Of a stretch of DNA of 64,000 bases, positions 18,648-40,292 are shown in pieces. Position numbers and translations under genes: made by a program. The notes under the pieces were generated by a model. The model did not search any database, had not been told where the DNA came from, and was given only the letters and a program-made list of their open reading frames with translations. This DNA comes from Thermoanaerobaculia bacterium (GTDB lineage Bacteria; Acidobacteriota; Thermoanaerobaculia; Multivoradales; JAHEKO01). The stretch covers positions 7,158-71,157 of the forward strand of contig JBAUDS010000444.1 of assembly GCA_049678185.1 (NCBI GenBank). The letters run 5' to 3'. Within the stretch, counting starts at the first letter, position 1. Each line of letters opens with the position of its first letter.

Positions 18648-18783
18648 GAAAAGCCGTCTTTTCCTTCCCTAGATTACCGTTTGTCACCTCGATTCGAGCG
18701 ACGCCGAGGGAATTGACGCCAGAGGGTCAACGTACATAACCTAGACTCACACTCGCTCTCAGAAGGGGTCAGGAGGTTGGACC

Positions 18784-19713: not shown

Positions 19714-19715
19714 AA

Positions 19716-22169: not shown

Positions 22170-23498
22170 ATGGCGGCCGGAGGGCGGCAAGCTCACCCGT
22201 ACGACGTCGTAGTGGTGGGTGGGGGGCCGGCTGGCTCGACCGCAGCCGCGTTCTTGGCAATGGCCGGGCACAGAGTTGTTGTCGTAGAGCGAGAGAGCTT
22301 TCCCAGATTTCATATCGGCGAGTCGCTGCTTCCTGCAAGTCAGCCCATTCTGGAGCGTCTCGGGATAGCCTCGCGATTGGAGAGCGAGGGCTTTGTCACC
22401 AAGCGCGGTGCGTCAATCCTCTTCGAGGATGGCTCTACCGGTGCCTCGATCGTCTTTTCGCGCGGACTCGACTCGGGTCACAGTAGTACCTACCAGGTGG
22501 AGCGGGCACGCTTCGACAAGATCCTGCAAGAGACCGCGGTGGAAAAGGGGGCCGAGCTTCGATCGTCGACCCGGGCCACCGCTGTCGAATTTGACGAGAA
22601 GGAGGTGAGACTCCACCTGGCGGCCACGGGGGAGAGCTCATCTGCAATTGTCGAGACACTGCACGCGCGCTTCCTCGTCGATGCATCGGGCCAGGCCGGC
22701 TTTCTCGCCAAGCGCCTGGGGCTGCGACGCGTCGATCCGGATCTGCAAAGTGTGGCGGCATATGCACATTTTGTGAATGTTCACCGGTCAGACCAGGTGC
22801 CGGCCGGAGACATCCAGCTCATCTCGCGGCGCGATTTGAGCTGGTTGTGGCTCATACCGCTTTCAGAGGAACTCACGAGCGTTGGAGCAGTAGTACCGAA
22901 GGAGAATCTGAGGCGGACGAATGGACGGAGTAAAGAAGCCGCTTTTATGGAGCTGCTTTCATCGACATCGGTTGTCGCCAAGCAGATGGAGGCCGCTCAA
23001 CGGACGACTGAAGTCAAACACGAGGCGGATTTCAGCTACTCGTGCACCCACTACGCCGGAGACCGCTGGCTCCTGGCCGGAGATGCGGGGTCCTTTCTGG
23101 ATCCGGTGTTCTCGACCGGGGTTCAACTGGCGCTCGAAGCGGGAGAACAGGCAGCCGAAGCTATCGATGCAGCTCTTTCAGATGGAAGAGCTCGGGCAGA
23201 CGCGTTCGGGCAGTACGAGCGGAGCCAAAGGAAGCGGTACCGTCACTTTCGGCGGTACGTAAGAAGTTTCTACGACCCCGCCTTTCGCGATCTGCTCTGT
23301 CAAACTGCTACACGACTCGATCTAATGGAGGCGGTTACCTCCGTATTTGCGGGCCACACGAGGCTGAGTTGGAGGGTCCGCTGGCGCATGGAGCTCATCT
23401 TTCTGCTCGCCCGCCTCCAGAGCCTAGTACCTTCGTCAGTGCGACTTCATGACAGGTCTATGAAGCGTCCAGTTGAGGCGCCAGGTGATAGCTCCTGA
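22170..23498 (+). CDS. flavin-dependent halogenase (tryptophan-halogenase-like FAD-dependent oxidoreductase)
   Basis: It has an FAD-binding GGGPAGS motif, the WxWxIP motif (WLWLIP) and the FxxPxxSxG motif (FLDPVFSTG). These two halogenase hallmarks distinguish it from geranylgeranyl reductases. Confidence 0.7.
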   Translation: MAAGGRQAHPYDVVVVGGGPAGSTAAAFLAMAGHRVVVVERESFPRFHIGESLLPASQPILERLGIASRLESEGFVTKRGASILFEDGSTGASIVFSRGLDSGHSSTYQVERARFDKILQETAVEKGAELRSSTRATAVEFDEKEVRLHLAATGESSSAIVETLHARFLVDASGQAGFLAKRLGLRRVDPDLQSVAAYAHFVNVHRSDQVPAGDIQLISRRDLSWLWLIPLSEELTSVGAVVPKENLRRTNGRSKEAAFMELLSSTSVVAKQMEAAQRTTEVKHEADFSYSCTHYAGDRWLLAGDAGSFLDPVFSTGVQLALEAGEQAAEAIDAALSDGRARADAFGQYERSQRKRYRHFRRYVRSFYDPAFRDLLCQTATRLDLMEAVTSVFAGHTRLSWRVRWRMELIFLLARLQSLVPSSVRLHDRSMKRPVEAPGDSS

Positions 23499-23527
23499 TC
23501 GAAGCGTGCAAGCGGGAGGGGGCGGGC

Positions 23528-24385
23528 TCAACCCACAGGGCGACTCATCGCCAGCCGGATCACCTCTTCCGGAACGCCAGCCTCTTTCCAGGAGGCGAGA
23601 TCTTTGGCGGTGAGCGGCCTGGTGACCGTCTTGTTGGCTACATAGGCGGTGAGGGTCTCTGCCGAGAATCCCTGATCGAGAAGTCCTTTTAGCTCCTCGA
23701 GCAGCTCTTCCGGTGAGACGGCCTCACTTTGAGTCGATGAAGACCCAGCGATGCTGATGGGTGCCCGCCCGCCCATCCAGACGCGATGAAGGTCCGGCTG
23801 GCTGAAGAGATCTGCGAACGCCTCAATCATGGCGTCGCTCAGTACCTCGTTGCAGTTTTCATTGCTGAATTTCTTGCCGTAGCGGGAGGCGTCACCAAAA
23901 GCCGTCCCGGACCAGAGCTGAATACCGGCCCGATTCTGGAGCTGAGCGGCCACGCGGACCTCTGCATTGAAGGTGGAACCGACGGCTTTGTCCCTTTCGG
24001 TGACTTGAAATGTGAGGAGCTCGGCAGTCAGAGCAAGGTCGGCGTCCTCCGCGACTTGGATGCCCCATTCCTGGGCGTTCTTGACCAGGATCTTCTCCAC
24101 AAACGGCACCACTTCGTTCGTTGCTTTCAGGTCGAAGAGCTGGTCGTCATCGTTCGTTCGGCTGCCTATCAAAGCAGGGTCAGCGAAGGCTCGACCGTCC
24201 ACAAGGTGGATGCTGAGAGGGTGTTGACGAACGTTTCCGGGTATTGCCACCTCCGCTGCGGCCACGGCTTGCTGTGGGACGTAGACTAGATGGAAGTTGG
24301 GGTTGTTGGTTTTTGCCTGGACCGCTTCGCTGGTGAGAAATGAACCAATTACCAAGGCACTCCAGAGAACAGTTCCTGGTTTCAT
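23528..24385 (-). CDS. secreted protein of unknown function
   Basis: A signal peptide (VLWSALVIGSFLTSEAVQA) is present and no other motif was recognised. Confidence 0.45.
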   Translation of the reverse strand: MKPGTVLWSALVIGSFLTSEAVQAKTNNPNFHLVYVPQQAVAAAEVAIPGNVRQHPLSIHLVDGRAFADPALIGSRTNDDDQLFDLKATNEVVPFVEKILVKNAQEWGIQVAEDADLALTAELLTFQVTERDKAVGSTFNAEVRVAAQLQNRAGIQLWSGTAFGDASRYGKKFSNENCNEVLSDAMIEAFADLFSQPDLHRVWMGGRAPISIAGSSSTQSEAVSPEELLEELKGLLDQGFSAETLTAYVANKTVTRPLTAKDLASWKEAGVPEEVIRLAMSRPVG

Positions 24386-24647
24386 CAGAGCCTCCGTTCG
24401 AGCGAGAGATACACCTGCTTGTTGGAGATTATTCTACCGCGGAGCGCCGGATGGCGGCGCTCGAGCCGGAGAAACCACTACCGATTATTATGGCGTCATA
24501 GTCCTGCTTCACGTTTCTAGGTGGCCCGCGTAGAAAATCAGCGGAAGCGGAGCCCGGAGCCACATGCCTCTGTCGATGCGGCTTCACCAACGCCAGGGTC
24601 TCCATCGAAACACACCTACGGCTGAAAGGGACTGATATCCTGAATCA

Positions 24648-25406
24648 GTGAAAGATCGCCCCAAAGCCGAGCAACCCAGCCCGGTCGTTCCTCATCCCCC
24701 GTTGACCGAGTACTACCCGGACGCCGACACCCGCCGTCAGTTTGTGGACCGCATTTTCGACTCCACCGCGGAACATTACGAGTGGATCAACAAGGTCATG
24801 TCGTTCGGTATGGGCATTCGGTACCGACGGGAAGCACTCGAGCGTGCGGGTGTGTGCGAGGGTATGCGGGTGCTGGATGTCTGCACCGGTAGTGGCCAGG
24901 TGGCGCGGACCGGGATCGAGATGGTCGGATTGAATGGTTGGGTCGCCTGTTTGGATGCAAGTCTGGGGATGTTGTACGAAGCGTCTCGCGTGATCGGGGC
25001 GCCGCTGGTCCAGGGGTTCGTGGAGGACCTGCCGATTGCCGGTGGGGTCTTTGACGCCGTCACAATGGGATACGCCCTGAGACACGTAGCAGATCTCAAC
25101 GCCACCTTCCGCGAGTACCACCGAGTCCTGCGTCCCGGCGGACGGCTGCTGGTGCTGGAGCTCACCCGGCCACGGTCTCGATTCATGTATCACAGCGCCA
25201 AGTTCTATCTGAAGGGTGTGGTTCCTGCCGTGGCACGGTTGAAGGGTCGAGAAGCTCGAAAGCTCATGGAGTACTTCTGGGACACGATCGAGAATTGTGT
25301 CTCGCCGGAGACCATCCTTGGAGCGTTGGAGACTGCCGGGTTCGAGGCACCGAGCCGTTACGAGCAAATGGATTTATTCAGCGACTACACCGCTACCCGA
25401 CCTTGA
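24648..25406 (+). CDS. class I SAM-dependent methyltransferase (UbiE/MenG-like)
   Basis: It starts with GTG. Motif I is VLDVCTGSGQVA, the post-I acidic residue is present, and motif II/III is RVLRPGGRLLVLE. The N-terminal FDSTAEHYEWIN block is UbiE-like. Confidence 0.8.
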   Translation: MKDRPKAEQPSPVVPHPPLTEYYPDADTRRQFVDRIFDSTAEHYEWINKVMSFGMGIRYRREALERAGVCEGMRVLDVCTGSGQVARTGIEMVGLNGWVACLDASLGMLYEASRVIGAPLVQGFVEDLPIAGGVFDAVTMGYALRHVADLNATFREYHRVLRPGGRLLVLELTRPRSRFMYHSAKFYLKGVVPAVARLKGREARKLMEYFWDTIENCVSPETILGALETAGFEAPSRYEQMDLFSDYTATRP

Positions 25407-25423
25407 TATCCGACTTCTCTCGG

Positions 25424-26215
25424 TTATGGAAGGAGAACTGGTTGAAGTTCTCTTGCGTCGAGAGCATCCAGGAGACGCGGGAGAGCTTCCAAGACAACCG
25501 GACGGCCGCTCCGAGTCCGTGCAACAGACCCGTCGTGAAGCAGTAGCACGTCCCCCGCACCCAGGCGATCGACGAGTCGATCAACGACCTTCGAGGGACT
25601 CCTGGTAACCGTGTCGAAACCCCTCCTGGTCCAGGAAACGAGGTGCAAGCCGCGCCGCTGGAGATAGGGATCGAGCAGAGGGCTGCGAATCCCCGCGGGG
25701 GCGCGAAAATAGCGCGGGGCCTGCCCGGCAAGAGACTCCAGAAGCTCCTGGGTCCGATCCAGCTCGCGCGCGAGCTTGCGAGGTCCGGAGAACCAGAACG
25801 CAGGGGAATGACTCCAGGAGTGATTGCCGATCAGGTGCCCACCTTCAGCTATGGCCTTCACCATGGCAGGATGCGCGGCGGCTCGCCGGCCGATACAGAA
25901 AAAGGTGGCCGGCACCCGGCGTTGGCGCAGGATCTCGAGCACCTGGGGAGTCACCTCGGGGTCAGGACCGTCGTCGAAAGTGAGTGCCACGCGGCCGGCC
26001 GAGACGTCCGCGGGAGGGAGCTGGCTGAGATTGGGTCCCAGAAGGCGGCAGCGGGGTGCTAGTCCAGCTCCGACTACGATCGCGTGGTCGAGCAACAAGA
26101 CGGTCAGCCAGACCGGCCAGTGGGTGGGTCTCCTGACCAGCGCCATCCCGCAGACCAGATGAATACCAACCGACGCTACCACCAGGGTGTTGGGCCGCGA
26201 TCGAGGCGTTGTCAC
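25424..26215 (-). CDS. polysaccharide deacetylase (NodB-homology, CE4) with two N-terminal TM helices
   Basis: The motifs TFDDGP (the Asp-Asp metal and catalytic motif) and HSWSH are present. The start was assigned to an in-frame GTG that overlaps the ligase stop as GTGA. ATG 26146 is an alternative start. Confidence 0.65.
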   Translation of the reverse strand: MTTPRSRPNTLVVASVGIHLVCGMALVRRPTHWPVWLTVLLLDHAIVVGAGLAPRCRLLGPNLSQLPPADVSAGRVALTFDDGPDPEVTPQVLEILRQRRVPATFFCIGRRAAAHPAMVKAIAEGGHLIGNHSWSHSPAFWFSGPRKLARELDRTQELLESLAGQAPRYFRAPAGIRSPLLDPYLQRRGLHLVSWTRRGFDTVTRSPSKVVDRLVDRLGAGDVLLLHDGSVARTRSGRPVVLEALPRLLDALDARELQPVLLP

Positions 26216-27642
26216 GGCTCGCTGTCTTGATCTTCGAGAATCATCTTCACCGCCTGTCGGTCGATCTTGCCGCGTGAGGAACGTGGAATCTCGCCGACGA
26301 TGCGCACTTGCCGCGGCACCTTGTGGGCGGCGAGACGCTCGCGGCACCAAGTCGACACCTCGGTGGTGCTGAGGTGGTCGGTGTTCGCAGCAACTAGCGC
26401 TATGAGGGTCTCACCTGACCCGTTAGCTTCTGACGATCGGTGAACCAGGGCTTCGCTTACCCCGGGCATCGCCTCGAGTACGGCCTCGACCTCTCGCGGG
26501 CTCACTTTCTTGCCGCGCACGTTGATCATGTCGTCTACTCGACCCAAGAGAACAAGATCCTCGCCCTCGAATCGTCCCAGATCCGAAGTCCTGAAGCGTC
26601 CATTTCCGAGTCTGGTATCACTGCTGGGATAGTAGCCGAGTGCGGCCGCCGGTGATTCCACCTCGACTACCCCGGTACCGGCATCCTCTCCTTGGACGGG
26701 GATCAGTCTGATCTGCACGCCTTCGACTGCTGATCCCAGAGCACCCCGCTGGGCGGCACCCCCATCGCGGTCGTACGCAATTCCTCCGACCTCGGATGCA
26801 CCGTAGAAAGTGTGGATAGTCTGACCATAGACCTCTCGAAATCGTGTGGCAGTCTCGGGTCGCAAAGGCGCTCCCGCCGAAATAACGAGACGAACAGACG
26901 CAGGGAGGGGTGGGGGTGCGGTCATCTTCAGTAGCGCTTCGACGAAGGCAGGGACCGTGGGCAAGAACGTCACCTGGCCGTGTGTTGCGGCAGTGATGGG
27001 AGCAAAAGGGCCATGACTGTCGGGTATGGAGAGAGTCCAACTGGCAGTAAGAGCCGGCAGAAAGAGACTGCTGAATCCATAGGCATGGGACAACGGAATC
27101 GCGGCCAACGCCCTCTCGGTGTGGAGGCCCATCGTCTGCCGAAGCGCTCGGTCGTCCGCCAGGAGTGCCTCGGAAGTGTGGGCGATTCCCTGCGGCAGCC
27201 CAGTCGATCCCGAGCTCAAGCGAAGTGTGCTGACCTTGGCTGGAAGCGCTGGAAATTCTCCCTCCGCGGGCCCGGCGAGCAGATCGAAATCCTGATCGGA
27301 TTCAGGCCAGGCCCGGTGAGCGACGAGAACGGCCTTTGCACCCAGAGCGCCCTGAATTCTCTCGAGCTCGACCTGAGGAGTGGGCCAATCGATAAGTAGA
27401 ATCGGGTGGGAGGCCCGACGAAGTCCGAGATAACCCGCCACAAACGCCGGTCCATTTGGGGCCGAAAGCCCCACCAGAGCCCCTTCGGGCAGCCTGCTGG
27501 CAGCGACTCGGCTCGCCACCGCTTGGGCCAGGTCCGCAACCTCGGCGACGGTTGCCTTCTTGAGCGGCGAAGTCAGGAGGAGGTCCGACCCATGACGACG
27601 GGCACGGCTCTCGAATGCAAGGAGAATGGGGTCAGACGCCAT
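26212..27642 (-). CDS. AMP-binding acyl/aryl-CoA (or -ACP) ligase
   Basis: The AMP-binding core is LSSGSTGLPQGIAHT (the S/T-rich P-loop), with YGASE, a GEDLV-like region and a late Lys (PRSSRGKIDR). The start was taken at the internal ATG (MASDPILLAF). Confidence 0.8.
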   Translation of the reverse strand: MASDPILLAFESRARRHGSDLLLTSPLKKATVAEVADLAQAVASRVAASRLPEGALVGLSAPNGPAFVAGYLGLRRASHPILLIDWPTPQVELERIQGALGAKAVLVAHRAWPESDQDFDLLAGPAEGEFPALPAKVSTLRLSSGSTGLPQGIAHTSEALLADDRALRQTMGLHTERALAAIPLSHAYGFSSLFLPALTASWTLSIPDSHGPFAPITAATHGQVTFLPTVPAFVEALLKMTAPPPLPASVRLVISAGAPLRPETATRFREVYGQTIHTFYGASEVGGIAYDRDGGAAQRGALGSAVEGVQIRLIPVQGEDAGTGVVEVESPAAALGYYPSSDTRLGNGRFRTSDLGRFEGEDLVLLGRVDDMINVRGKKVSPREVEAVLEAMPGVSEALVHRSSEANGSGETLIALVAANTDHLSTTEVSTWCRERLAAHKVPRQVRIVGEIPRSSRGKIDRQAVKMILEDQDSEP

Positions 27643-27768
27643 TGCGAGGCAATGAACTCCACTGACAACTTTCGTCGATGCGCCTAGTATACTCTGGCGG
27701 AACGTGGGCACCTGCGGCGTCGGAAGGTGGGGGGCAAAAGGTCCGACCGCGAATCGGAGGAAGTGGCC

Positions 27769-28056
27769 ATGCCTGAGACAGGATCGATCCGTGCGCAGTT
27801 GAAGCGGTTGATCATCGACAGCCTCAATCTCGAAGAGATGTCGCCGGAAATGATTGGCGATGACTCGCCCTTGATGGGTGATGACGGGCTTGGCCTGGAT
27901 TCCGTCGACGCACTCGAGCTGGTGGTGGCGATGGAGAAAGAGTTCGGACTGCGGATCGAGGGTCAGGAGAGGCTCCGAGAGGCCTTCGTCTCAGTGGCGG
28001 GTCTTGCAGCATTCGTAGAAGAAATGATGGCGGAGAGCGTTTCTCCAGCGGAATGA
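27769..28056 (+). CDS. acyl carrier protein
   Basis: It has the GLDSVDALELV phosphopantetheine attachment Ser motif. It is about 95 aa long and is preceded by GGAGGAAG. Confidence 0.8.
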   Translation: MPETGSIRAQLKRLIIDSLNLEEMSPEMIGDDSPLMGDDGLGLDSVDALELVVAMEKEFGLRIEGQERLREAFVSVAGLAAFVEEMMAESVSPAE

Positions 28057-29282
28057 GCCCACCCTTTCGTGTCGTCATCACCGGCATCGGTGCGGTGAGC
28101 GCCTTTGGGTGGGGGGTGGACGCCCTGAGGCAGGGCCTGCAGTCCGGAAAGACCGCAATCACCGAGCCAAAATCGTTCAACACGAATGGACATCGCACTC
28201 GCGTTGCAGGGGAAGTCCCTGAAGCCCCGGCGGAAATAGAGGCTGCGTTCTCCGACTGGGATCGACTTTCTCGAGCCGACCAATTTGCCGTAGCGGCCGG
28301 CTTCGAGGCAGCTCGGCAGGCGCGGCTTGACGATCCGACGCAAGGCTGCGGTGTCTACTTCGGTAGCAGCACCGCCGGGATGCTCGAGTGCGAGGAGTAT
28401 GTGGCCCGTCTCTTGGGGGTACGAGCGGGACATCCACGACTGGGACAGCTGGCCTCGCAGCAGCTGAACGCGCCTGGGGACGCACTGGCCCGGGCGCTGG
28501 GCGTGACCGGGCCTGTCCAGAGTTTTTCCACTGCTTGTGCATCGGGTACCTTGGCGGTCGGTGCGGCTCGCGATGCCTTGCGCAACGGAGAAGTAGAGGC
28601 TGCCCTTACGGGAGGCGCAGACTCGCTCTGTCAACTCACCTACGGTGGCTTCAACTCCTTACGCGCGGTGGACAAGAGTCCCAGTCGCCCATTTCGAAAG
28701 GACCACTCCGGCTTGAGCTTGGGCGAAGGGGCGGGGGTGCTGGTCGTGGAAGACCTCGAGCATGCGGTCAGCCGAGGAGCTCGCCCTCTGGCCGAGGTCC
28801 TTGGGTTTGGGGCCAGCTGCGACGCCCACCATATGACCGCACCACAACCTGAAGGCGAGGGGGCTCTCGGCGCGATGAAGGCCGCACTCGCCGACGCCGG
28901 AGTCGAGCCGCGGCAGGTGGGCTTTTTGAATACCCATGGAACCGGCACACCGCACAACGACGAAGCCGAAGCTCGCGCCTGTGCACGCCTTTTGGAGGAG
29001 CGTCTTTCTCAGGTGCCGGTGTCGGCAACCAAGGCCGCCGTCGGTCATCTCCTGGGGGCGGCTGGGGCGCTCGAGGCCGTGGCGACCGTTCTCGCCCTGA
29101 TGGAGGGAGCCGTCCATCCGACCCCTGGTGCGGGAGAAATGGATGCAGAGCTGGGGCTCGATCTTGTCGTGGGCGAGGCGCGTGAGCTCGAGAACGGAGC
29201 TGTGGCGATCTCCACCAACCTGGCCTTCGGGGGCGCCAACGCAGCTCTGGTGCTGCGGGCGTGGAGTGGAGAGACCGCGTGA
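28053..29282 (+). CDS. beta-ketoacyl-ACP synthase (KS-alpha / FabF-like)
   Basis: The active-site Cys is in STACASG, and both His residues are present in HMTAP and NTHGTGTPHND. An ATGA overlap joins it to the ACP. Confidence 0.9.
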   Translation: MSPPFRVVITGIGAVSAFGWGVDALRQGLQSGKTAITEPKSFNTNGHRTRVAGEVPEAPAEIEAAFSDWDRLSRADQFAVAAGFEAARQARLDDPTQGCGVYFGSSTAGMLECEEYVARLLGVRAGHPRLGQLASQQLNAPGDALARALGVTGPVQSFSTACASGTLAVGAARDALRNGEVEAALTGGADSLCQLTYGGFNSLRAVDKSPSRPFRKDHSGLSLGEGAGVLVVEDLEHAVSRGARPLAEVLGFGASCDAHHMTAPQPEGEGALGAMKAALADAGVEPRQVGFLNTHGTGTPHNDEAEARACARLLEERLSQVPVSATKAAVGHLLGAAGALEAVATVLALMEGAVHPTPGAGEMDAELGLDLVVGEARELENGAVAISTNLAFGGANAALVLRAWSGETA

Positions 29283-30511: not shown

Positions 30512-31206
30512 GCGACACAGAGTCGGTGGCGGCAGCGATACCGGCCTACAATGCGGCTCCTTTTGTAGGCGACGTCGTCCGCCGCACCCTGGCGCAGATT
30601 GGTGAAGTAGTCGTGGTGGATGATGGTTCTGCGGACGAAACCGCAAGTCGCGCCCGGGAAGCAGGTGCAGAAGTTCTGGCGCATGATTTCAATCGGGGAA
30701 AGGGGGCGGCGCTGAGAACAGCGTTCGCATATCTGGCGGAACGTGACTTTGACGCGGTGTTGACTTTGGATGCGGATGGCCAGCATCTTCCAGAGGAGAT
30801 TCCTCGGCTCGAGCAGGCATGGCGGGAAGGTGCGGACCTCGTGTTGGGTACCCGGGACCACCTATTCGACGAGATGGTGTGGCTACGTCGAGCGAGCAAC
30901 ACCGTGTCTTCTGGCCTCATCTCCTTTGCCGCCGGGGTTCGCCTGGCCGACATCCAAACCGGTTTCCGCATCTATTCGAGATGTCTTCTGGAGGCCACGG
31001 GTTTTCCCGAGAATCGTTTCGAAGCCGAGAGCGCGGTTGTTGTGCGGGCGGCGCGGCGGGGTTTCAAGATTGCGACGGTTCCGGTGGAGTTGGGTTTTGC
31101 CGACGGCCGTTCCACAAGTCACTACAGACCGGTTATCGACAGCCTGCGAATCGCGGAGGCGGTCATCCGCGCCCGATTGGGCAGTATGAAGGGACAAGCA
31201 CAGTGA
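30508..31206 (+). CDS. glycosyltransferase family 2
   Basis: The N-terminus AIPAYNAAPFV ... VVVVDDGSADET carries the DxD region (DADGQH). An ATGA overlap joins it to the CLF. Confidence 0.8.
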   Translation: MSDTESVAAAIPAYNAAPFVGDVVRRTLAQIGEVVVVDDGSADETASRAREAGAEVLAHDFNRGKGAALRTAFAYLAERDFDAVLTLDADGQHLPEEIPRLEQAWREGADLVLGTRDHLFDEMVWLRRASNTVSSGLISFAAGVRLADIQTGFRIYSRCLLEATGFPENRFEAESAVVVRAARRGFKIATVPVELGFADGRSTSHYRPVIDSLRIAEAVIRARLGSMKGQAQ

Positions 31207-31928
31207 CGGAAGTCATCTTGGTAACGGGTGGAAGCAGAGGCATCGGGCGGGCGATAGTGGAGCGGCTCACCCGCTCCGGCCACACCGTTGGTTTTACCTG
31301 GCGTACAGATGAAACGCTCGCCAAAGAGGTCGAAGGCACAACCGGCGGCAAGGGAAAGGCTTTTCATCTGGACCTGACCGACCGGAAGCGGCCGGCACCT
31401 CTCGTGGCCGAGGTAGAGGCCGAGCTGGGACCATTGAGCGGTCTGGTCAACAACGCTGGTATTCAGCGCACGGAGCTGTTGGCGCTGACCTCGGATGCAT
31501 CGTGGGACGAGATCTCGGATGTGAATCTCGGCGGGGCCTTTCGCGTAACCCGTGAGGTATTACGCTCCATGGTGCCACGCCGACGGGGCTCGATCGTCAA
31601 CTTGGCCTCTCTTTCTGCCCTCCATGGTTTAGCGGGGCACGCTGCCTACGCGGCGTCGAAGGCCGGTCTTCTGGCCATGACCCGATGCCTGGCGAGAGAG
31701 ATGGGCGGTCGAGGCATTCGGGTAAACGCCGTTGTTCCCGGTTTTGTTGCCACCGAAATGACCAACGATCTGCCCAGTGAAGTCGTCTCTCGACTCCGCT
31801 CGGGCGAATGCCTGCCAGACGGGGTAACCGCCTCTGCGGTGGCCGAGGTTGTCGCTTTCCTCCTCTCGGAAGCGGCAGCGGCCGTCACCGGACAGGCGCT
31901 GCCGGTAGACGCGGGCACTTCAGCCTGA
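31203..31928 (+). CDS. 3-oxoacyl-ACP reductase (SDR, FabG-like)
   Basis: It has the TGGSRGIG cofactor motif, NNAG, and a catalytic S ... YAASK triad. A GTG start overlaps the GT2 stop as GTGA, giving a 241-aa product. Confidence 0.85.
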   Translation: MTEVILVTGGSRGIGRAIVERLTRSGHTVGFTWRTDETLAKEVEGTTGGKGKAFHLDLTDRKRPAPLVAEVEAELGPLSGLVNNAGIQRTELLALTSDASWDEISDVNLGGAFRVTREVLRSMVPRRRGSIVNLASLSALHGLAGHAAYAASKAGLLAMTRCLAREMGGRGIRVNAVVPGFVATEMTNDLPSEVVSRLRSGECLPDGVTASAVAEVVAFLLSEAAAAVTGQALPVDAGTSA

Positions 31929-31935
31929 GCCGCCC

Positions 31936-34395
31936 ATGGGAGTGTTGGCACGGATAGTGGCGCGGCACCCAAGAACCGTGGTGGCGGTTGCCCTGGTGCT
32001 GTGGGCGTTGGCCCTTATACCTGCTTCGCAGCTTCGGCTCCGCTTCGAGCTGGAATCTCTGCTACCCGGTAACTCACCGGCTGCAGCCGCCTACGGCGAA
32101 TATTTGCGTCTCTTCGGCGGGGTGAGGCGGGTCTTTGTGATCCTGCAGGCGCCCGAGGACACGGAAGGCGTTAGCTCAGCCCTGCTGACAGAAGCTGGAG
32201 ACCGGCTGGCTGAGCTGCTGGAGGAAAGTGGCGAGGTGTCGTCCGCCCGAGCTGGAATTAGCGACGAGGATCAGCGTGAATTCCTGACCAACGTTGTTCA
32301 ACGGGCTCCGTTGCTCGTTCCTGGAGACGATTGGCTCGAGCGGGTGGTCGCGCACCTCGACCCGGAGGCCATTCACGACAGGGTGCTGCAGATCCGCGCC
32401 TCATTGCTGATGCCCGGCGGTGGCACGACGGCCCGACTCGCTGTACACGATCCGCTGGGCTTCGCCGCAGAATTGCCTCTATTGCAGGAGCTTCCCTCTG
32501 GCATTCCTGTAGATCCCGTCACCTTGGGTTTTGTCTCTCCCGACGGTCGAAGCGCGTTGGTGGTAGCCGAGCCGTCGGCAGCGGAGTTGGATGCAGTGGC
32601 CGGGCAGCGACTGCAAAAGGCCATTGAGGAAGCGGCTGCAACGATTCGCTTGGAACTCGAGGAGGATCTGGTAGTGCGTGCGGTAGGCGGTCCCCTCTAC
32701 GCGGCACACGACCAGCAGGTCATCCGTTCCGATATGGAGCGGACGCTGGCGTACACGGCTCTTCTCTGTGGAGGATTGCTGGTGGCCGTTTTTGGGGGCC
32801 CCGCGATTCCCGTCGCCGGCTTGGTGGCACTCGCCGCAGCCCTGAGCTGGCTTGCCGCCGGCGTAGCGCTGACCGCCGGCGGTGTCACGGCGGTGGCCGT
32901 CGGTTTTTCGGCCGTTCTGGTGGGCTTGGGTCTGGATACAGCCATCCACGGTGGTGCCGCCTTGCGTCGGCGGCAGCTGGAGGCCACCTCGAGCGCAGAA
33001 GCCCTGGAAATGGCCTTTGATGACGTCGCCCGGCCGGTGGTTGCCGCGGCTGTTACCACTGCCGCGGCCTTTGGCGTGCTCATCGCTTCGAATCTGCCAC
33101 CTCTGCGGGAAGTTGGCGGAGTGGTGGCGGGAGGCATGCTAACCGTGGTGGTTTCGACCGCGACTTTGGGCGCCGGGTTGGCACTTCTGCTGTCGCGCAA
33201 ACCCAAGACCCCAGGATGGGCGTGGACCGTGCTTGGTCGTGCAGTGGACGCCATCGTCGAGACCGCCAGCCGTTGGCCCCGTGTTGTTTTGGCCAGCGCC
33301 TTGGTGCTTACTGCCGTAACTCTCCCGGCTGCTTTCAAGCTCGAGATTCGACCGGATCTCACCGGTCTGCGGCCCTTGGATCACCCTGTTCTCGAAGCCG
33401 AACGGGCTCTGCGTGAGTTCTTTGGCGTAGGAGAGGATGCCGCCACTGTCTTGGTGCGAGGTGATGATCTGGATGGGGCCCTGACCCAGGCGCGCGCGGT
33501 GATTGGCGTGCTCGAGGACTCAGGGACAGGTGTTACCGTCGTTTCACCGGTCGGTCGTATCATCGGTCCCGACGAGGCGGCCGGCCGGCTCGAGGCTCTT
33601 CAAGCTCTGCCACTGACAGAGGCAGTTGCTAGATTCCAGTCCGAGGTCCGTTCCGCCGGGCTCAACCCCGCGGTTTTCTCGCCGGGGCTGGACGCTCTGA
33701 GGGAGTTGGCCGACGGCAGAAGTCCAGGTGGAACATTGCCCGCCGCAGACGAGCAGCTCAGGGTACAACCCTCGGGCGAGGTGTGGGTGGCGATGTTGCT
33801 CCGCCAATCGGTGGACCCATGGCCTGACGGGCCGCCGATCGAAATTAGATCCGCAGTGACCCAGGCAGCTCCATCGGCGTTGATCGCGTCGGTGCCATGG
33901 GTCGGTGAGGATCTTCGCCGCGTGGCTGCCAAAGACCTCCGCAGGCTTTCCGGGCTGTCTCTGATCATCGTGGTGGGCGTAGTGTTGGCGTCATTTCGGG
34001 GCCGACCTGCCCCGTCACTGCTTGCCCTGGGTCCAGTATTCTTTGGCACCGCATGGTGTTTGGGGTTGTGGTCTCTCATGGGTCGTCCTTTGGATCTGGT
34101 CGGTCTGGCCGTGCTGCCGGTGATGTTGGGTATCGGGATTGACGACGGCCTGCATGCGGTCCATGGTGCGAAACCCGGGGGTGTCGAAAGGATCGCGGGC
34201 TCTGTCCGCCGCTCCGGACCCGCCATGACCCTCACCACCATCACGACCTGCATTGGATTCAGCAGTCTGGCGCTGTCGCGCCTGCCGGCGCTGCAGGCGG
34301 TAGCCCTTCTAGTACCCATCGGGGTGGGATCGTGTCTGGTGGCGACACTGGTGCTGATGCCCGCCACAGCCTCTCTTTTTCACGGGCGAGAATGA
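31936..34395 (+). CDS. MMPL-family (RND superfamily) exporter
   Basis: The 819-aa protein has two repeated 6-TM bundles with large periplasmic loops, which is typical of the MMPL-like exporters found in aryl-polyene clusters. Confidence 0.8.
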   Translation: MGVLARIVARHPRTVVAVALVLWALALIPASQLRLRFELESLLPGNSPAAAAYGEYLRLFGGVRRVFVILQAPEDTEGVSSALLTEAGDRLAELLEESGEVSSARAGISDEDQREFLTNVVQRAPLLVPGDDWLERVVAHLDPEAIHDRVLQIRASLLMPGGGTTARLAVHDPLGFAAELPLLQELPSGIPVDPVTLGFVSPDGRSALVVAEPSAAELDAVAGQRLQKAIEEAAATIRLELEEDLVVRAVGGPLYAAHDQQVIRSDMERTLAYTALLCGGLLVAVFGGPAIPVAGLVALAAALSWLAAGVALTAGGVTAVAVGFSAVLVGLGLDTAIHGGAALRRRQLEATSSAEALEMAFDDVARPVVAAAVTTAAAFGVLIASNLPPLREVGGVVAGGMLTVVVSTATLGAGLALLLSRKPKTPGWAWTVLGRAVDAIVETASRWPRVVLASALVLTAVTLPAAFKLEIRPDLTGLRPLDHPVLEAERALREFFGVGEDAATVLVRGDDLDGALTQARAVIGVLEDSGTGVTVVSPVGRIIGPDEAAGRLEALQALPLTEAVARFQSEVRSAGLNPAVFSPGLDALRELADGRSPGGTLPAADEQLRVQPSGEVWVAMLLRQSVDPWPDGPPIEIRSAVTQAAPSALIASVPWVGEDLRRVAAKDLRRLSGLSLIIVVGVVLASFRGRPAPSLLALGPVFFGTAWCLGLWSLMGRPLDLVGLAVLPVMLGIGIDDGLHAVHGAKPGGVERIAGSVRRSGPAMTLTTITTCIGFSSLALSRLPALQAVALLVPIGVGSCLVATLVLMPATASLFHGRE

Positions 34396-35363
34396 CAGAC
34401 GACGCAAACCCGGCGCCACCGCATGCTCCAGACACCAGAGGCCGCCTCCGCAGGCTTCTCGGCGCCTACCACGTGACGGGTGTCTTCTGGTACCGATTCC
34501 ATCATTGGGGCATGTCTATTCTCCCCGAGTGGGGGGTTCATGTAGCCATCTCCGTTTTTACGCCGTTTTTCTTCATTTCGCTGCGGCGGATCCGCAAGGC
34601 CATCGCCAGCAATCTCGAACCTGTCCTGGGACCTTGTGGCTGGTGGCAACGTCAAGGTCGGATCTGGTGGACCATGTGGACCTATGCGTGGTGTCTCTCC
34701 GAGCGGTACGAGTCGCTGAGTGGCAAAGGGTCAGCGCAGATCAGCGCGGACGGAGAGGACCGATGGCACGAGCTGATGGCCAGCGATCGGGGTCTTGTGT
34801 TCGTAACGGCCCATATCGGTCACTGGGAGATCGGCTCGCGGCTGGGATTGACTCGAGCTAATCGGCGCGTCCACGTCATACGTGAGGGGGAGGTGGACCC
34901 GAAAGCCCAGGAATTCATCCGCGAGCTCTTGGCTCGGGAGTCGGAAGCGAACTTTGAGATGCACTTCGCGGACGAGTCGGATCCGTCTCTGGGTGCCCAT
35001 CTCCTGGGGGCGCTGAGGGATGGCGACGTGGTCGCACTGCAGGGAGACCGTCCACGAGCTGGAAGCCGCTCCTGGACCGGCAGCCTGTGTGGCCGGCCGA
35101 TGGAGCTGCCGGTAGGACCGGCCGCTATCGCGCGTGCGGCCCAAGTACCGCTCGTGCCGGTGTTTATTTTCCGAGATGGCCGTCACCGGTCTCGGGTGTT
35201 CATACGAGCCCCGATTTCGGTCCCGTCCACCGACGATAGAACCGCCGACATCGCGAGTGCGCTGCAGCGGGTTGCCGACGAAGTGGAGTGGGCCATCCGC
35301 CATGAGCCACACCAATGGTTCTGCTTCCGGGAGCTATGGCCGGAGGCCGATGACCTTGCCTGA
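34392..35363 (+). CDS. lysophospholipid acyltransferase (LpxL/HtrB-like LPLAT)
   Basis: The AHIGHWE motif matches the HxxxxE acyltransferase motif. An ATGA overlap joins it to the MMPL stop. Confidence 0.75.
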   Translation: MTDDANPAPPHAPDTRGRLRRLLGAYHVTGVFWYRFHHWGMSILPEWGVHVAISVFTPFFFISLRRIRKAIASNLEPVLGPCGWWQRQGRIWWTMWTYAWCLSERYESLSGKGSAQISADGEDRWHELMASDRGLVFVTAHIGHWEIGSRLGLTRANRRVHVIREGEVDPKAQEFIRELLARESEANFEMHFADESDPSLGAHLLGALRDGDVVALQGDRPRAGSRSWTGSLCGRPMELPVGPAAIARAAQVPLVPVFIFRDGRHRSRVFIRAPISVPSTDDRTADIASALQRVADEVEWAIRHEPHQWFCFRELWPEADDLA

Positions 35364-35406
35364 CGGACTTTTGCCGAAGAGTCCGCTGTCCTTCAATTCA
35401 CCAGTG

Positions 35407-35850
35407 TCAAGCAGGAGTTGAGAGGCTAAGACGACCCTCAGCAGCCTCTTCCCCATCGAGAGTAACGGTAAACGAGAATGTTGCCAGATCTCCCATCTGG
35501 GCCTCGAGACGAACCCGAGCCTCGAGGGCCTGGTCCACGCAAACCTCGGGTACAAACAGCCGAGTCTCACGCAGACCGACCAGAAAGCCGAGCTCCGGGT
35601 GCGGCAGGTCCTCGGTTTCCGTGGCTTTCAGAAGACCGATGAGAACTCCTGCCGCCTGCGCCGCGAAGTCCACCACCAATAGTGCCGATACTCGCCCCTC
35701 GGCAACATAGGGGTGGCTGTGTGGGATACGGCCAGCAAGGGTGGCCGTCCTGCCCACGTGCTCGATCACTTCGGTCACCAGCAGCGCCGGAGGGCGGTGC
35801 GGTAGGAGATCTATCAGAGCGTCGGGGTCGCCTTGCCCACGCGGTCGCAC
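35407..35850 (-). CDS. hotdog-fold 3-hydroxyacyl-ACP dehydratase (FabA/FabZ-like)
   Basis: The LPHRPPALLVTEV N-terminal block and a His in the HSHPYV region mark the hotdog fold. The start is uncertain. The maximal ORF would overlap the downstream lipoprotein gene by 180 nt, so the in-frame GTG at 35850 was used, although it has no clear RBS. Confidence 0.5.
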   Translation of the reverse strand: MRPRGQGDPDALIDLLPHRPPALLVTEVIEHVGRTATLAGRIPHSHPYVAEGRVSALLVVDFAAQAAGVLIGLLKATETEDLPHPELGFLVGLRETRLFVPEVCVDQALEARVRLEAQMGDLATFSFTVTLDGEEAAEGRLSLSTPA

Positions 35851-35867
35851 CAGAGGATCAGCTACGA

Positions 35868-36284
35868 CTAGTCTTCGGGTTTGGCAGAGTCTTCGGGATA
35901 TTCGAAAACGTAGCTCATCATCTCTTCGAAGGTCCCGTCGGCATTTGGCAACGCCCGCTGTGCCGCGGTGAAGAGGAACTTGACCTTGACCTTTTCGTGC
36001 TTGACATTGGCTTTCAGCCGGAGAGTCAGTTCGACCTTCGTACCGCTGCAATCCACATCCAGGACGGTGAATGTAGCCCCCTCGGGAATCTCCTCGTTGT
36101 CCCTTTCCAGCTTGACGATTCCTCCCGGTGCTACTTTCGTGTCGTAAAGGGGTTTCTTGGCGATAAAGATCCTGCCCTCCAACTTGGTAGCCAACTCGGG
36201 GCAGTCGGAGTCAGCGGCGGCCAGCGAGGGGAAGGCAGTCAGCAGCACTGCGAGAGCCAACACGGTGAGAAACAAGGATTTCAT
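35868..36284 (-). CDS. small secreted protein or lipoprotein of unknown function
   Basis: It has a signal peptide (MKSLFLTVLALAVLLTAFPSLAAADSDC) and a 138-aa product. Confidence 0.5.
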   Translation of the reverse strand: MKSLFLTVLALAVLLTAFPSLAAADSDCPELATKLEGRIFIAKKPLYDTKVAPGGIVKLERDNEEIPEGATFTVLDVDCSGTKVELTLRLKANVKHEKVKVKFLFTAAQRALPNADGTFEEMMSYVFEYPEDSAKPED

Positions 36285-36321
36285 GGTTACACCTCCTGAG
36301 TAGGTCATCCGGCTCGAGGGT

Positions 36322-37281
36322 TCAATGCCGGGCTGTCGAAAGGTCCGCCCAGCCCTCGATCTCCACCAGCAGGCCATCACGGCAGAGGCCTACCCTGAGG
36401 AGCTCGATTTCTTCGAGTCCGGAAAAAGCAGTGCGTACGAGATCTTCAATTGTACTCTTGTCCCTCTCCTGCGGGTAATAGACCCGCAGCTGGCGGAACC
36501 TTCCGAGCAGAGCCTGCCGCTCACACTCCAGGTGGACTTCTGGTAGATCGACTATCAGACCGGAGGCGACCACCGACGCGAGATTGTGGAATGTTTCCTC
36601 AATCTGGGCCTCGAGGTCGCCGAGGTGAAGTGTGGTCTCGCCTCGAATGGAAGCCGTACCGCCGACCAGCAGTCGAGAGGGAGTGCCGGCTGTCTCTTCC
36701 AGCCGTGTGGCCCGGGAGAAACATGGCGGTAACGGACCATAGGCCCCGGAATAGCGGTAGGGAGCAATCTGACGGGGGTTGACTACCGGTAATCCTGGTT
36801 GGTCCGCGGCTAGCGCGTAGACGATCAGGTCGTCACCTTTGGTGCCGATTCCCGATGCGCAGGCAACCCTCTGGTCGAAGTCTCCACGCTCTCCGTACCA
36901 CCGGGAGTAGGCATTGAATCGCCCGGCGTTGAATGCCATGTAGCGATGCGGCAGGCTGCTGAGCGGCTCGAGAATCCCGGGGATGAGATTCCAGACGCGC
37001 ACGAGATGACGATCTCCCGCCGCGGTCAGCACCAATTCGTAGGCCTGTTCCACCTTCCGTTCAAGACCCTCTTGGTCGAGATATCGAGCCGCTTGGAGTC
37101 GAACGGCCACGAGCGTGTATCCCTCGCCCGTCCGGCGGCTCAAGAAGAAACCCTCGGGAGCTTCCAGCCCCAGCTCCGGACCGGGACCCACCAAATCGAG
37201 AACCCAGGGTTGGGGCTGACAGATCGACGGCTCAGCGGTTGAAGGCGGAGGGATGACTCGGGCAGCGAAGTGCTGAGGCAT
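36322..37281 (-). CDS. putative chorismatase, FkbO/Hyg5/XanB2-like (N-terminal domain plus RidA-fold C-terminus)
   Basis: The assignment is tentative. The protein is 319 aa, its C-terminal third (LLVGGTASIRGE ... LHLGDLEAQIEETFHNLASVV) resembles the RidA/YjgF fold, and the gene sits within a halogenase / aryl-polyene-like cluster. Confidence 0.35.
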   Translation of the reverse strand: MPQHFAARVIPPPSTAEPSICQPQPWVLDLVGPGPELGLEAPEGFFLSRRTGEGYTLVAVRLQAARYLDQEGLERKVEQAYELVLTAAGDRHLVRVWNLIPGILEPLSSLPHRYMAFNAGRFNAYSRWYGERGDFDQRVACASGIGTKGDDLIVYALAADQPGLPVVNPRQIAPYRYSGAYGPLPPCFSRATRLEETAGTPSRLLVGGTASIRGETTLHLGDLEAQIEETFHNLASVVASGLIVDLPEVHLECERQALLGRFRQLRVYYPQERDKSTIEDLVRTAFSGLEEIELLRVGLCRDGLLVEIEGWADLSTARH

Positions 37282-38935: not shown

Positions 38936-39523
38936 ATGAGTTGGATGGAGGGAAATGACCTTGACCTGGTTGAAAGAGCGCGCGCCGGGGATTCCGACGC
39001 CTTTAGGGAGCTTGTCGACCGACACAGCCGGACCATGTTCAAAACGGCCTATCGACTCACCGGCAACGAAGCGGATGCCGACGACCTGGTGCAGGAAGCC
39101 TTTCTGCGCGCCTATCGCAAGCTCGACCGCTTCGACGGCCGGTCGCAATTCAGCACCTGGCTCTATCGCATCACCGTCAACTGTGGAATGGATCTGATGA
39201 GAAAGAAATCACGCCGAAGCGCCCGGGCCGCGATGGACGAAGAGGTGGTTCTCGACACCGTGGCTACCAACGACCCCCGACCCGATCGGTTGGCCCTGAG
39301 CGGGGAGATCGGGCGGGCGGTGGAGAGTGTTCTCAGAACCTTGAGCCCAATGGAGCGGGCGGCCTTTGTTCTACGTCACTTCGAGGGACGGTCGATCGCC
39401 GAGATCGGCGGTCTGCTGGGAGCGCGGAGCGGAGCCACCAAACACGCCGTCTTTCGGGCGGTCAAGAAATTGCGGGCGGCGCTCGGACCGCTGGTGGAGG
39501 AGAGCCATGAAGCGACTCAGTGA
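38936..39523 (+). CDS. RNA polymerase sigma-70 factor, ECF subfamily
   Basis: Region 2 reads DLVQEAFLRAYRKLDRFDGRSQFSTWLYRITVNCGMD and region 4 reads RAAFVLRHFEGRSIAEIGGLLGARSGATKHAVFRA. An AGGAGG RBS is present. Confidence 0.9.
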   Translation: MSWMEGNDLDLVERARAGDSDAFRELVDRHSRTMFKTAYRLTGNEADADDLVQEAFLRAYRKLDRFDGRSQFSTWLYRITVNCGMDLMRKKSRRSARAAMDEEVVLDTVATNDPRPDRLALSGEIGRAVESVLRTLSPMERAAFVLRHFEGRSIAEIGGLLGARSGATKHAVFRAVKKLRAALGPLVEESHEATQ

Positions 39524-40286: not shown

Positions 40287-40292
40287 GAGGTA

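Follow-up and report, generated by a model that had tools for sequence, protein, structure and literature searches.

Which product is made by the 15 genes at positions 22170 to 37281 of a 64,000-nucleotide stretch of Thermoanaerobaculia bacterium DNA (contig JBAUDS010000444.1, positions 7,158 to 71,157 of the forward strand; G+C content of about 63%), here called the window? The original prediction read them as a type II polyketide synthase (PKS)-type cluster and anticipated a halogenated aryl-polyene membrane pigment. Our analysis supports that interpretation, as the ketosynthase grouped apart from FabF of primary metabolism and the putative chorismatase proved similar to FkbO. The region consists of 15 uninterrupted open reading frames (ORFs), all of the listed genes were recovered in their places with the expected Pfam and NCBIfam families, and the catalytic motifs that were checked are intact across the cluster. 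Gene boundaries were refined with public gene calls on identical contigs and by direct reading of the sequence; the chorismatase protein is identical to one in the Thermoanaerobaculia metagenome-assembled genome (MAG) GCA_049648285.1 and is present on 15 public contigs. We conclude, with a probability of roughly 80%, that the genes constitute a xanthomonadin-type aryl-polyene biosynthetic gene cluster, the product of which, by analogy with characterized pathways, is most likely a halogenated, membrane-anchored, yellow aryl-polyene pigment resembling xanthomonadin.

Xanthomonadins are brominated, methylated aryl polyenes primed with 3-hydroxybenzoate, which the ligase XanA2 loads onto the acyl carrier protein (ACP) XanC. 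Two genes of the window are candidates for supplying and loading such a starter:

36322 to 37281, minus strand: chorismatase of the FkbO/Hyg5/XanB2 family, 319 amino acids (matches to PF21168, TIGR04444 and the Hyg5 and FkbO structures)
26212 to 27642, minus strand: adenosine monophosphate (AMP)-forming ligase, 476 amino acids (PF00501, E value of 7e-39; PF13193)

The chorismatase matched the FkbO/Hyg5 N-terminal domain PF21168 (E value of 4.6e-13; 49.7 bits, passing the cut-off of 27) and positions 67 to 309 of the 311 in profile TIGR04444 (E value of 1.2e-37), and its sole solved relatives were Hyg5 (5AG3, 1e-26) and FkbO (4BPS, 9e-21), so that the earlier call of an FkbO/XanB2-like enzyme at this position holds. 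Residues Gly144, Gly208, Cys300 and Glu307 align with Gly173, Gly240, Cys327 and Glu334 of Hyg5, and FkbO carries Ala where Hyg5 has Gly240 and Cys327. A published study takes the Gly/Gly/Cys combination as the mark of the 3-hydroxybenzoate-forming subfamily of chorismatases and Glu334 as the catalytic acid. Among 33 chorismatase homologues, Gly208, Cys300 and Glu307 were invariant and Gly144 was nearly so, and many homologues bear the Joint Genome Institute (JGI) label "chorismate lyase/3-hydroxybenzoate synthase." Going by these residues, the gene is predicted to encode a 3-hydroxybenzoate synthase. The ligase contains a P-loop-like SSGSTGLPQ motif, a YGASE motif and the A10 Lys and is a distant relative of Escherichia coli ApeH (23% identity, E value of 8e-8). 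Because XanA2 and an Azoarcus ligase are described in the literature as serving this role, the enzyme is predicted to be an aryl-acid:ACP (or coenzyme A) ligase that loads the hydroxybenzoate starter.

Chain extension would depend on three consecutive genes:

27769 to 28056, plus strand: ACP of the ApeE type, 95 amino acids (PF00550)
28053 to 29282, plus strand: ketosynthase (KS; KS-alpha), 409 amino acids (PF00109, PF02801)
29279 to 30511, plus strand: full-length chain-length factor (CLF; KS-beta), 410 amino acids (PF00109; PF13723, E value of 1.8e-12)

The ACP has its attachment residue, Ser45, within a GLDSV motif and was 46% identical to E. coli ApeE (E value of 2e-21) compared with 30% to AcpP. 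The KS, the start of which overlaps the ACP stop by 4 bases, has a complete Cys-His-Lys-His active site; it scored 188 bits against E. coli ApeO, 174 bits against the solved ApeO 6QSP and 346.2 bits on the fabF equivalog model TIGR03150, under that model's cut-off of 493.75. Neighbor-joining trees were built from 59 to 60 KS and CLF sequences taken from related loci, the E. coli CFT073 ape (aryl-polyene) genes and the E. coli fab genes. Within this limited sampling, the clade of window-type KSs (96 to 98% bootstrap) was sister to a group formed by Planctomycetota KSs and ApeO (87 to 91%), and the window KS was nearer to E. coli FabF than to ApeO in 0 of 200 bootstrap replicates, consistent with the claim that it is not the FabF of primary metabolism. 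In these trees, no KSs stood nearer to E. coli ApeO than those of Planctomycetota.

The CLF aligned to FabF over residues 5 to 406 and has Gln at the position of the catalytic Cys, as had been read from its translation; moreover, both His residues are replaced by Ala and the Lys by Thr. It fell in a clade with 100% bootstrap support, in the members of which Gln or Glu replaces the catalytic Cys. Pigment formation in Lysobacter requires the conserved Gln of ORF16, a CLF-like protein. No similarity was detected between the window CLF and the 240-amino-acid ApeC of E. coli. A KS/CLF-like pair is found among solved entries as 9S5H.

Two further genes encode the candidate enzymes for beta-carbon processing:

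31203 to 31928, plus strand: FabG-type 3-oxoacyl-ACP reductase, or ketoreductase (KR), 241 amino acids (PF13561, E value of 2e-57)
35407 to 35850, minus strand: hotdog 3-hydroxyacyl-ACP dehydratase of the ApeP type, 147 amino acids (matches to PF22817 and FabZ and, by profile search, to a solved ApeP-like structure)

The KR has TGGSRGIG, NNAG and YAASK motifs and scored 180 bits against the flexirubin reductase model FlxB, below its cut-off of 340. The PF22817 assignment of the dehydratase was precomputed on an identical protein, our own Pfam search giving just an E value of 0.056, and the NCBIfam FabZ model was matched at 2e-6. With the dehydratase and three orthologues used together as a profile, the best solved relative was 6QSR_B (E value of 7e-12), which is 53% identical to E. 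coli ApeP and came ahead of every FabZ. An LPHR motif containing the His and a conserved acidic residue are present. Neither an enoyl reductase nor a malonyl transferase is encoded in the cluster, and no second dehydratase was found in the window.

Genes for lipid assembly and export complete the synthase region:

30508 to 31206, plus strand: family 2 glycosyltransferase (GT2), 232 amino acids (PF00535, E value of 5e-24)
31936 to 34395, plus strand: MMPL/RND-type lipid exporter, 819 amino acids (PF03176, E value of 2e-18)
34392 to 35363, plus strand: LpxL/HtrB-family lipid acyltransferase, 323 amino acids (PF03279, E value of 3e-17)
25424 to 26215, minus strand: membrane-anchored CE4 (NodB-type) deacetylase, 263 amino acids (PF01522, E value of 1e-32)

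GT2, with DDGSAD and DAD motifs, resembles polyprenyl-phosphate and lipid-linked hexosamine transferases (NCBIfam PpgS-like, E value of 8e-29, under the cut-off) and is among the best-conserved proteins of the cluster, at 61 to 74% identity across Acidobacteriota loci. It matched the N-terminal half of E. coli ApeJ (26% identity, E value of 2e-13), and the LpxL-like protein, which has an HX4D/E-type HIGHWE motif, matched the C-terminal half (residues 362 to 556; 24% identity, 1e-9); thus, the fused ApeJ of E. coli corresponds to two genes here. The MMPL protein matched the HAE3 model TIGR00921 (4e-47, under the cut-off) and, weakly, E. coli ApeM (25% identity, E value of 0.007). The CE4 protein contains FDDG, HSWSH, RAPAG and LLHD motifs.

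Enzymes of the LpxL, GT2 and CE4 families are typical of envelope glycolipid synthesis, and the KS and KR score highest against FabF and FabG. One alternative is therefore that the KS/CLF pair, KR and dehydratase form a specialized fatty acid synthase (FAS)-like system that makes a hydroxylated or partly saturated aryl lipid or glycolipid (a phenolic lipid or a lipid A-like molecule), for which an enoyl reductase of primary metabolism could act in trans. The grouping of the KS with ApeO and not with FabF, the Gln-type CLF, which is a polyketide feature, the ApeP type of the dehydratase and the ApeE type of the ACP all argue for a polyketide, as does the lack of an enoyl reductase in the cluster; moreover, clusters proven to make polyene pigments contain these accessory enzymes too. 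We consider a FAS-like system to be quite improbable and an aryl-polyene synthase to be the better account of these genes.

The halogen and methyl substituents expected of a xanthomonadin-like pigment would be introduced by two tailoring enzymes:

22170 to 23498, plus strand: flavin-dependent halogenase of the CndH/PltA/CmlS/Bmp2 type, 442 amino acids (PF04820, E value of 3e-31)
24648 to 25406, plus strand: S-adenosylmethionine (SAM)-dependent methyltransferase of the UbiE/MenG family, 252 amino acids (PF01209, E value of 6e-34)

A GxGxxG motif, a WxWxIP motif and a catalytic Lys separate flavin-dependent halogenases from related monooxygenases. The window protein has GGGPAG at residues 17 to 22, Lys78 at the position of CndH Lys76, WLWLIP at residues 225 to 230 and FLDPVFSTG at residue 309. 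Its best solved matches were 8ZOP (2e-63), CndH (3E1T, 3e-62) and PltA (5e-56), and its top ten solved relatives were halogenases of the CndH, PltA, ChlB4, CmlS, Bmp2 and RadH group with the exception of 3NIX, which is annotated "Flavoprotein/dehydrogenase." The NCBIfam CmlS model was matched with an E value of 1.4e-66 and 225 bits, far under its 900-bit cut-off. The methyltransferase has a SAM motif, VLDVCTGSG, at residue 75 and scored 148.7 bits against NCBIfam UbiE, under the 216-bit cut-off.

How the genes are arranged bears on which of them belong together. From left to right, the order is halogenase (plus strand), a 285-amino-acid secreted protein (minus), the UbiE-type methyltransferase (plus), CE4 and the ligase (both minus); then ACP, KS, CLF, GT2, KR, MMPL and LpxL-like, all on the plus strand; and finally the dehydratase, a 138-amino-acid secreted protein and the chorismatase, all on the minus strand. 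Neighbors among the seven genes from ACP to LpxL-like share 4-base start/stop overlaps, with an 8-base gap before MMPL only, and because of these overlaps the seven genes are taken to be one translationally coupled operon. The GTG start of CE4 (26215) overlaps the TGA stop of the ligase gene, so that these two genes are translationally coupled as well. Between the two divergent units lies one intergenic region:

27643 to 27768, strandless: 126-bp divergent intergenic region between the ligase-CE4 unit and the ACP-to-LpxL operon

This region is likely, to judge from the layout of the genes, to be the shared promoter region of both units, and it contains a single sigma-70-like match (27662 to 27690, plus strand). 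A consensus scan for promoters and terminators was uninformative on operons because the counts were at chance level (2 versus 2.3 expected and 16 versus 12.8 expected). At least five transcription units can be counted: neighboring ATP-binding cassette (ABC) transporter genes with the halogenase; the 285-amino-acid secreted protein; the methyltransferase; the ligase with CE4; and ACP-KS-CLF-GT2-KR-MMPL-LpxL. A sixth would run to the dehydratase on the right side, possibly beginning with a saccharopine dehydrogenase gene and continuing through the chorismatase and the 138-amino-acid protein.

The original prediction held that membership of the halogenase and methyltransferase would be weakened if they were transcribed apart from the PKS genes. 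The two genes do lie in separate units, but separate transcription is not evidence against membership, because relatives embed them in the PKS cluster and the Xanthomonas pig cluster is itself reported to comprise seven transcription units.

To define related loci, genomes were scanned with a chorismatase alignment, taking one genome per species, which gave 224 relatives. The best 80 of these 224 came nearly all from Acidobacteriota (Thermoanaerobaculia, Holophagae and Vicinamibacteria) and Planctomycetota (Phycisphaerae and Tepidisphaerales). Loci in which a homologue of the window protein lies within 10 kb of the chorismatase gene were counted as follows:

KS, 42 of 80; CLF, 41 of 80; AMP-forming ligase, 39 of 80
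halogenase, 36 of 80; LpxL-like acyltransferase, 36 of 80; GT2, 31 of 80
CE4 deacetylase, 29 of 80; MMPL exporter, 28 of 80; methyltransferase, 14 of 80
saccharopine dehydrogenase, 0 of 80; extracytoplasmic function (ECF) sigma factor, 0 of 80; first ABC-2 permease, 2 of 80; second ABC-2 permease, 1 of 80

At least one of KS, ligase, LpxL, GT2, CE4, MMPL, halogenase and methyltransferase was present in 63 of the 80 loci, and we conclude from this figure that the grouping of the genes is not due to chance. Gene order differs widely among the loci.

The same counts speak to whether the chorismatase is a mere neighbor, engaged in quinone synthesis, a diffusible signal or catabolism, with the PKS using some other starter. 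XanB2 is reported to be bifunctional, feeding ubiquinone synthesis as well and acting as the diffusible-factor synthase. The window chorismatase gene lies on the strand opposite to the PKS operon, its unit may begin with the unrelated saccharopine dehydrogenase, and for 17 of the 80 homologues none of the cluster genes lies within 10 kb. Moreover, a tblastn search of plasmids with the chorismatase found, besides the FkbO/Hyg5 genes of Streptomyces and Pseudonocardia, one Caballeronia gene outside pigment clusters. Set against these points, the 63 loci with cluster genes nearby show several gene orders, the window chorismatase shares a unit with the ApeP-like dehydratase, and no ammonia lyase or other starter-supplying enzyme was found in the window. 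We give the neighbor explanation next to no weight and retain the chorismatase as the probable source of the starter.

Membership of the halogenase and methyltransferase is argued mainly from their recurrence in shuffled gene orders. The methyltransferase gene adjoins CE4, ligase or chorismatase genes in its 14 loci. The halogenase gene lies inside PKS clusters in four loci, L060, L061, L068 and L089: between ligase and ACP in L061, between ligase and GT2 in L068, and in L089 (8454 to 11302 on a 9.3-Mb ENA contig) as tandem halogenases of 515 and 433 amino acids directly after the LpxL-like gene. In L089, a very large nonribosomal peptide synthetase gene starts about 10 kb downstream.

The left flank of the halogenase gene allows a different account, in which an aryl polyene is made but the "halogenase" is outside the pathway or does not halogenate (serving as a hydroxylase or in the ABC operon), and the pigment is unhalogenated like that of Lysobacter. 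At 16794 to 22096, genes for an ABC ATPase and two ABC-2 permeases set the halogenase apart from a GAF-GAF-SpoIIE phosphatase gene, three transcription units separate the halogenase from the PKS operon, and the permease-halogenase order is kept in relative L088, which is 89% identical. Lysobacter and Xylella clusters have no halogenase and give unbrominated pigment, and fewer than half of the related loci have the gene within 10 kb. In relative L087, however, where the halogenase shares 78% identity, there are no ABC genes and the GAF-SpoIIE phosphatase gene abuts the halogenase, from which we infer that the ABC operon was recently gained or lost at the window site. Together with the WLWLIP motif, the aligned Lys, the near-uniform halogenase identity of the top solved relatives and the homologues placed among PKS genes in L061, L068 and L089, this makes a non-halogenating role unlikely, and a halogenated aryl polyene stays the favored product. 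The adjacent ABC-2 exporter, which the original prediction had noted beside the cluster, was rejected as a cluster member, as it is missing in L087 and homologues of its permeases lie near the chorismatase in just the 2 and 1 loci listed above. No homologue of the saccharopine dehydrogenase or of the ECF sigma factor lay near the chorismatase in any of the 80 loci, and both were rejected as well.

Several related loci have features of their own. P0165 (MEE8523839.1), from a Thermoanaerobaculia MAG on a 2.7-kb contig, is a 668-amino-acid halogenase homologue (52% identity) with, in addition, a LolA domain (PF03548). It appears to join a halogenase and an outer-membrane lipoprotein-carrier domain in one polypeptide, and such a fusion would tie the tailoring and transport parts of these clusters physically together. 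In Planctomycetota, locus L027 (3083 to 5557) has a KS and a short CLF-like segment in one frame with no stop between them, and similar ORFs of about 750 to 1000 amino acids occur in L043, L045, L054, L062, L065, L067, L070, L079 and others, which suggests that Planctomycetota clusters encode a fused KS-CLF polypeptide. The closest relatives of the window, L008 to L010, have the same gene order with an extra gene between the 138-amino-acid protein and the dehydratase (L008, 2478 to 3596, and the corresponding intervals of L009 and L010), which the window is without. In L008, its product has 372 amino acids, a membrane N terminus and a methyltransferase-like C terminus and matches the DUF2062-methyltransferase of L095. 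Locus L095 is a related cluster in the complete genome of the cultured Luteitalea sp. TBR-22 (AP024452.2, 5438653 to 5459567), with genes for CE4, ACP, KR, a KS-like protein, LolA, MMPL, GT2, LpxL, YdjM, the DUF2062-methyltransferase, chorismatase, an ApeP-like dehydratase and an AMP-forming ligase; no halogenase was found within 10 kb. Locus L084 is labeled "Proteobacteria"; a protein search with its chorismatase gave relatives from Vicinamibacteria/Luteitalea, and the enzyme is 61 to 97% identical to proteins of which the named ones belong to Luteitalea or other Acidobacteria, none being from a named proteobacterium, and the taxonomic label is probably wrong.

The two remaining genes of the cluster encode secreted proteins:

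23528 to 24385, minus strand: secreted protein with a YajG-like PF03923 match, 285 amino acids (E value of 1.4e-6; 28.6 bits, cut-off of 25)
35868 to 36284, minus strand: small secreted protein, 138 amino acids (signal peptide, no clear lipobox)

The larger protein has a signal peptide without a lipobox Cys, and homologues are present in L088 and in the cluster of L068, the latter with 35% identity. The smaller protein has no Pfam or NCBIfam match and is kept in L008 to L010 only (39 to 42% identity). The lipoprotein label in the original prediction is replaced here by "secreted protein," there being no clear lipobox. Both proteins are candidates for the role of LolA/LolB-like carriers, but their single-sequence AlphaFold models were of low confidence (pLDDT of 64 for the smaller and 54 for the larger), leaving the fold unassigned, a Foldseek search with the 138-amino-acid model returned no match below an E value of 0.06, and relaxed Pfam searches added nothing for either protein.

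Among characterized systems, the arcuflavin loci of Azoarcus come close to the window. They comprise a halogenase, an XanB2-type chorismatase, a methyltransferase, a polysaccharide deacetylase, an AMP-forming ligase, an ACP and a KS, together with a protein having an N-terminal KS domain, dehydratases, a reductase, a glycosyltransferase, acyltransferases, an exporter and LolA. Compared by published gene lists, the repertoire of Azoarcus sp. BH72 equals that of the window except for LolA and duplicated parts, and the methyltransferase-deacetylase adjacency of arcM and arcN, the latter encoding the polysaccharide deacetylase, is as in the window. The claimed aryl-polyene/xanthomonadin repertoire, with halogenase and methyltransferase included, thus matches a known gene list and recurs in the related loci. 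Both the arcuflavin and the xanthomonadin systems (Xanthomonas campestris and Xanthomonas oryzae) are alike in functional repertoire to the window, are split into several transcription units and use a Gln-bearing CLF-like partner, as the window does. They differ from it in host phylum, Pseudomonadota as opposed to Acidobacteriota, and in having parts to which no counterpart was found in the window, namely a LolA-like carrier and a second acyltransferase and dehydratase. Furthermore, the CLF-like partners of Lysobacter and Azoarcus are N-terminal-half proteins, whereas the window CLF is full length at 410 amino acids. The original prediction was right that the host is not Xanthomonas; the surprise that it attached to this is smaller, since xanthomonadin-type clusters are already described in Betaproteobacteria and the family is common in Acidobacteriota and Planctomycetota.

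Lysobacter enzymogenes OH11 offers the nearest parallel for the synthase. As in the window, a stand-alone KS adjoins a Gln-bearing CLF-like protein, a dolichyl-phosphate-mannose-synthase-like GT2 gene lies next to the KS pair, and an XanB2 homologue supplies 3-hydroxybenzoate. Unlike the window, strain OH11 has neither a halogenase nor an in-cluster methyltransferase, and its pigment is unbrominated. The ape clusters of E. coli CFT073 and Xenorhabdus doucetiae have in common with the window ApeE-, ApeO-, ApeP- and ApeJ-like parts, MMPL and the AMP-forming ligase. The glycosyltransferase and acyltransferase, which are fused in E. coli, are separate genes in the window, and the window methyltransferase is of a family other than that of ApeB. 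The CFT073 cluster has no annotated chorismatase, halogenase or CE4, all three of which the window has. A DUF3261 homologue was not found in the window by Pfam, including at a relaxed threshold, or by BLAST.

More distant comparisons concern the type II PKSs and the flexirubins. Highly reducing type II PKS (6KXD, which we take to be from the ishigamide pathway) and the actinorhodin enzyme (1TQY) likewise pair a full-length KS with a full-length, Cys-less CLF; the scores of the window KS were 217 bits for 6KXD_A and 190 bits for 1TQY_A, both below its 246 bits for FabF, and the gene context differs. Flexirubin clusters of Bacteroidota have the aryl-polyene core logic in common with the window and are reported to contain glycosyltransferase, LolA, acyltransferase and exporter accessory genes. 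Their starter source is a tyrosine ammonia lyase, compared with a chorismatase in the window. A tblastn search of the window, in which DarA was not used as a query, found no gene of the FabH-like family to which DarB belongs, and the Pfam-annotated genes of the region include no dar-type gene. Genome-mining papers mention aryl-polyene clusters together with Acidobacteria, and our literature search found no paper linking such clusters with Thermoanaerobaculia.

What weighs against a xanthomonadin-type pigment cluster? By raw score, the KS is closest to FabF (246 bits against that of Thermus thermophilus and 210 bits against that of E. coli), and the KS trees are neighbor joining, hold three primary-metabolism references only and leave out the KSs of Xanthomonas and of flexirubin clusters. 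The KR is 41% identical to E. coli FabG versus 32% to ApeQ, which agrees with the behavior of the Xanthomonas pigment reductase FabG3, a FabG-like enzyme that complements an E. coli fabG mutant. No match to ApeC, ApeD, ApeG, ApeI, ApeK, ApeL or ApeN was found in the 64-kb window, nor was a second dehydratase, a thioesterase, a PlsC-type acyltransferase or a LolA/LolB-like carrier; ApeR matched just the single KS and the CLF, so that no second (initiating) KS is present. Parts of the ApeR and ApeK types, an initiating KS and a thioesterase, are not universal in xanthomonadin-type clusters. The chorismatase score of 129.9 bits on TIGR04444 falls below the curated cut-off of 325, which makes the protein a divergent family member, and according to the Azoarcus paper the product of a chorismatase is not reliably predictable from alignment, a statement that includes XanB2-type formation of 4-hydroxybenzoate. 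The halogenase gene follows the ABC-2 permease gene on the same strand after 73 bp and may be cotranscribed with the ABC operon. XanB2, XanA2 and the Xanthomonas halogenase were likened to the window genes by description only. Finally, the host is uncultured and the cluster is known here from its genes alone.

If the genes act together as proposed, the pathway would begin with the chorismatase, an enzyme with observed family and residues, which would convert chorismate to 3-hydroxybenzoate and perhaps 4-hydroxybenzoate too, a product that we infer. By analogy, the AMP-forming ligase would load the hydroxybenzoate onto the ApeE-like ACP, and the single KS with its Gln-type CLF would extend the starter with malonyl units, presumably delivered by a housekeeping malonyl transferase, since the cluster encodes none. 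The FabG-like reductase and ApeP-like dehydratase may act in each round, and a conjugated polyene is expected because no enoyl reductase is encoded. The halogenase could chlorinate or brominate the aryl ring or the chain, probably on an ACP-bound substrate, since several related enzymes take substrates attached to carrier proteins, and the UbiE-like methyltransferase could methylate the aryl head.

In Xenorhabdus, the aryl-polyene lipid has the polyene esterified to N-acetylgalactosamine (GalNAc), which is phosphate-linked to diacylglycerol; the role proposed for ApeJ is the addition of both sugar and polyene, and that for ApeM is lipid export. By analogy with this GalNAc-phosphoglycerolipid, the GT2, the membrane-bound CE4 and the LpxL-like protein may build an anchor in the form of a hexosamine-containing lipid and couple it to the polyene, and the MMPL transporter may move the pigment lipid towards the outer membrane. 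The order of the anchor steps, and whether the linkage is ester or amide, is speculation drawn from the same comparison.

One such arrangement would distinguish these bacteria. Deacetylation followed by N-acylation is the sequence used in lipid A synthesis. In a like manner, Acidobacteriota and, differently, Planctomycetota might have a distinct xanthomonadin-type synthase lineage in which one KS and a full-length CLF of the Gln/Glu type carry out both initiation and elongation and in which CE4 acts before LpxL, leaving the polyene amide-linked to a hexosamine lipid. We offer this tentatively and regard it as a minority prospect. If it were true, an amide-linked halogenated polyene on a hexosamine lipid would be a new class of aryl-polyene lipid.

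Next to the cluster, an ECF sigma factor, a probable anti-sigma factor (39520 to 40286) and two secreted repeat proteins are encoded at 38936 to 42690. The second repeat protein has a homologue annotated as a HEAT-repeat protein in public calls, and on other contigs from this species these genes remain together with the chorismatase end. Genes elsewhere in the window encode two Ser/Thr kinases with TPR (2510 to 4657 and 53966 to 56377), a Fic-domain protein (42971 to 44500; the call is the Pfam annotation of an identical public gene), a family 9 glycoside hydrolase with a CelD N-terminal domain (60406 to 62286) and an AcrB/membrane-fusion efflux pair (11987 to 16208).

The locus is a known kind of cluster in a new, little-studied host phylum, one that has fewer parts and a CLF of full length. 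Its value is in annotation and natural-product discovery, and the understanding of how such systems work is unchanged by it. The cultured acidobacterium Luteitalea sp. TBR-22, with its related cluster, could serve as a model for the chemistry. Among uncultured Acidobacteriota and Planctomycetota, the xanthomonadin-like subtype that is primed by a chorismatase and bears a halogenase is common, and for Thermoanaerobaculia it predicts a halogenated membrane pigment that would be antioxidant or photoprotective.

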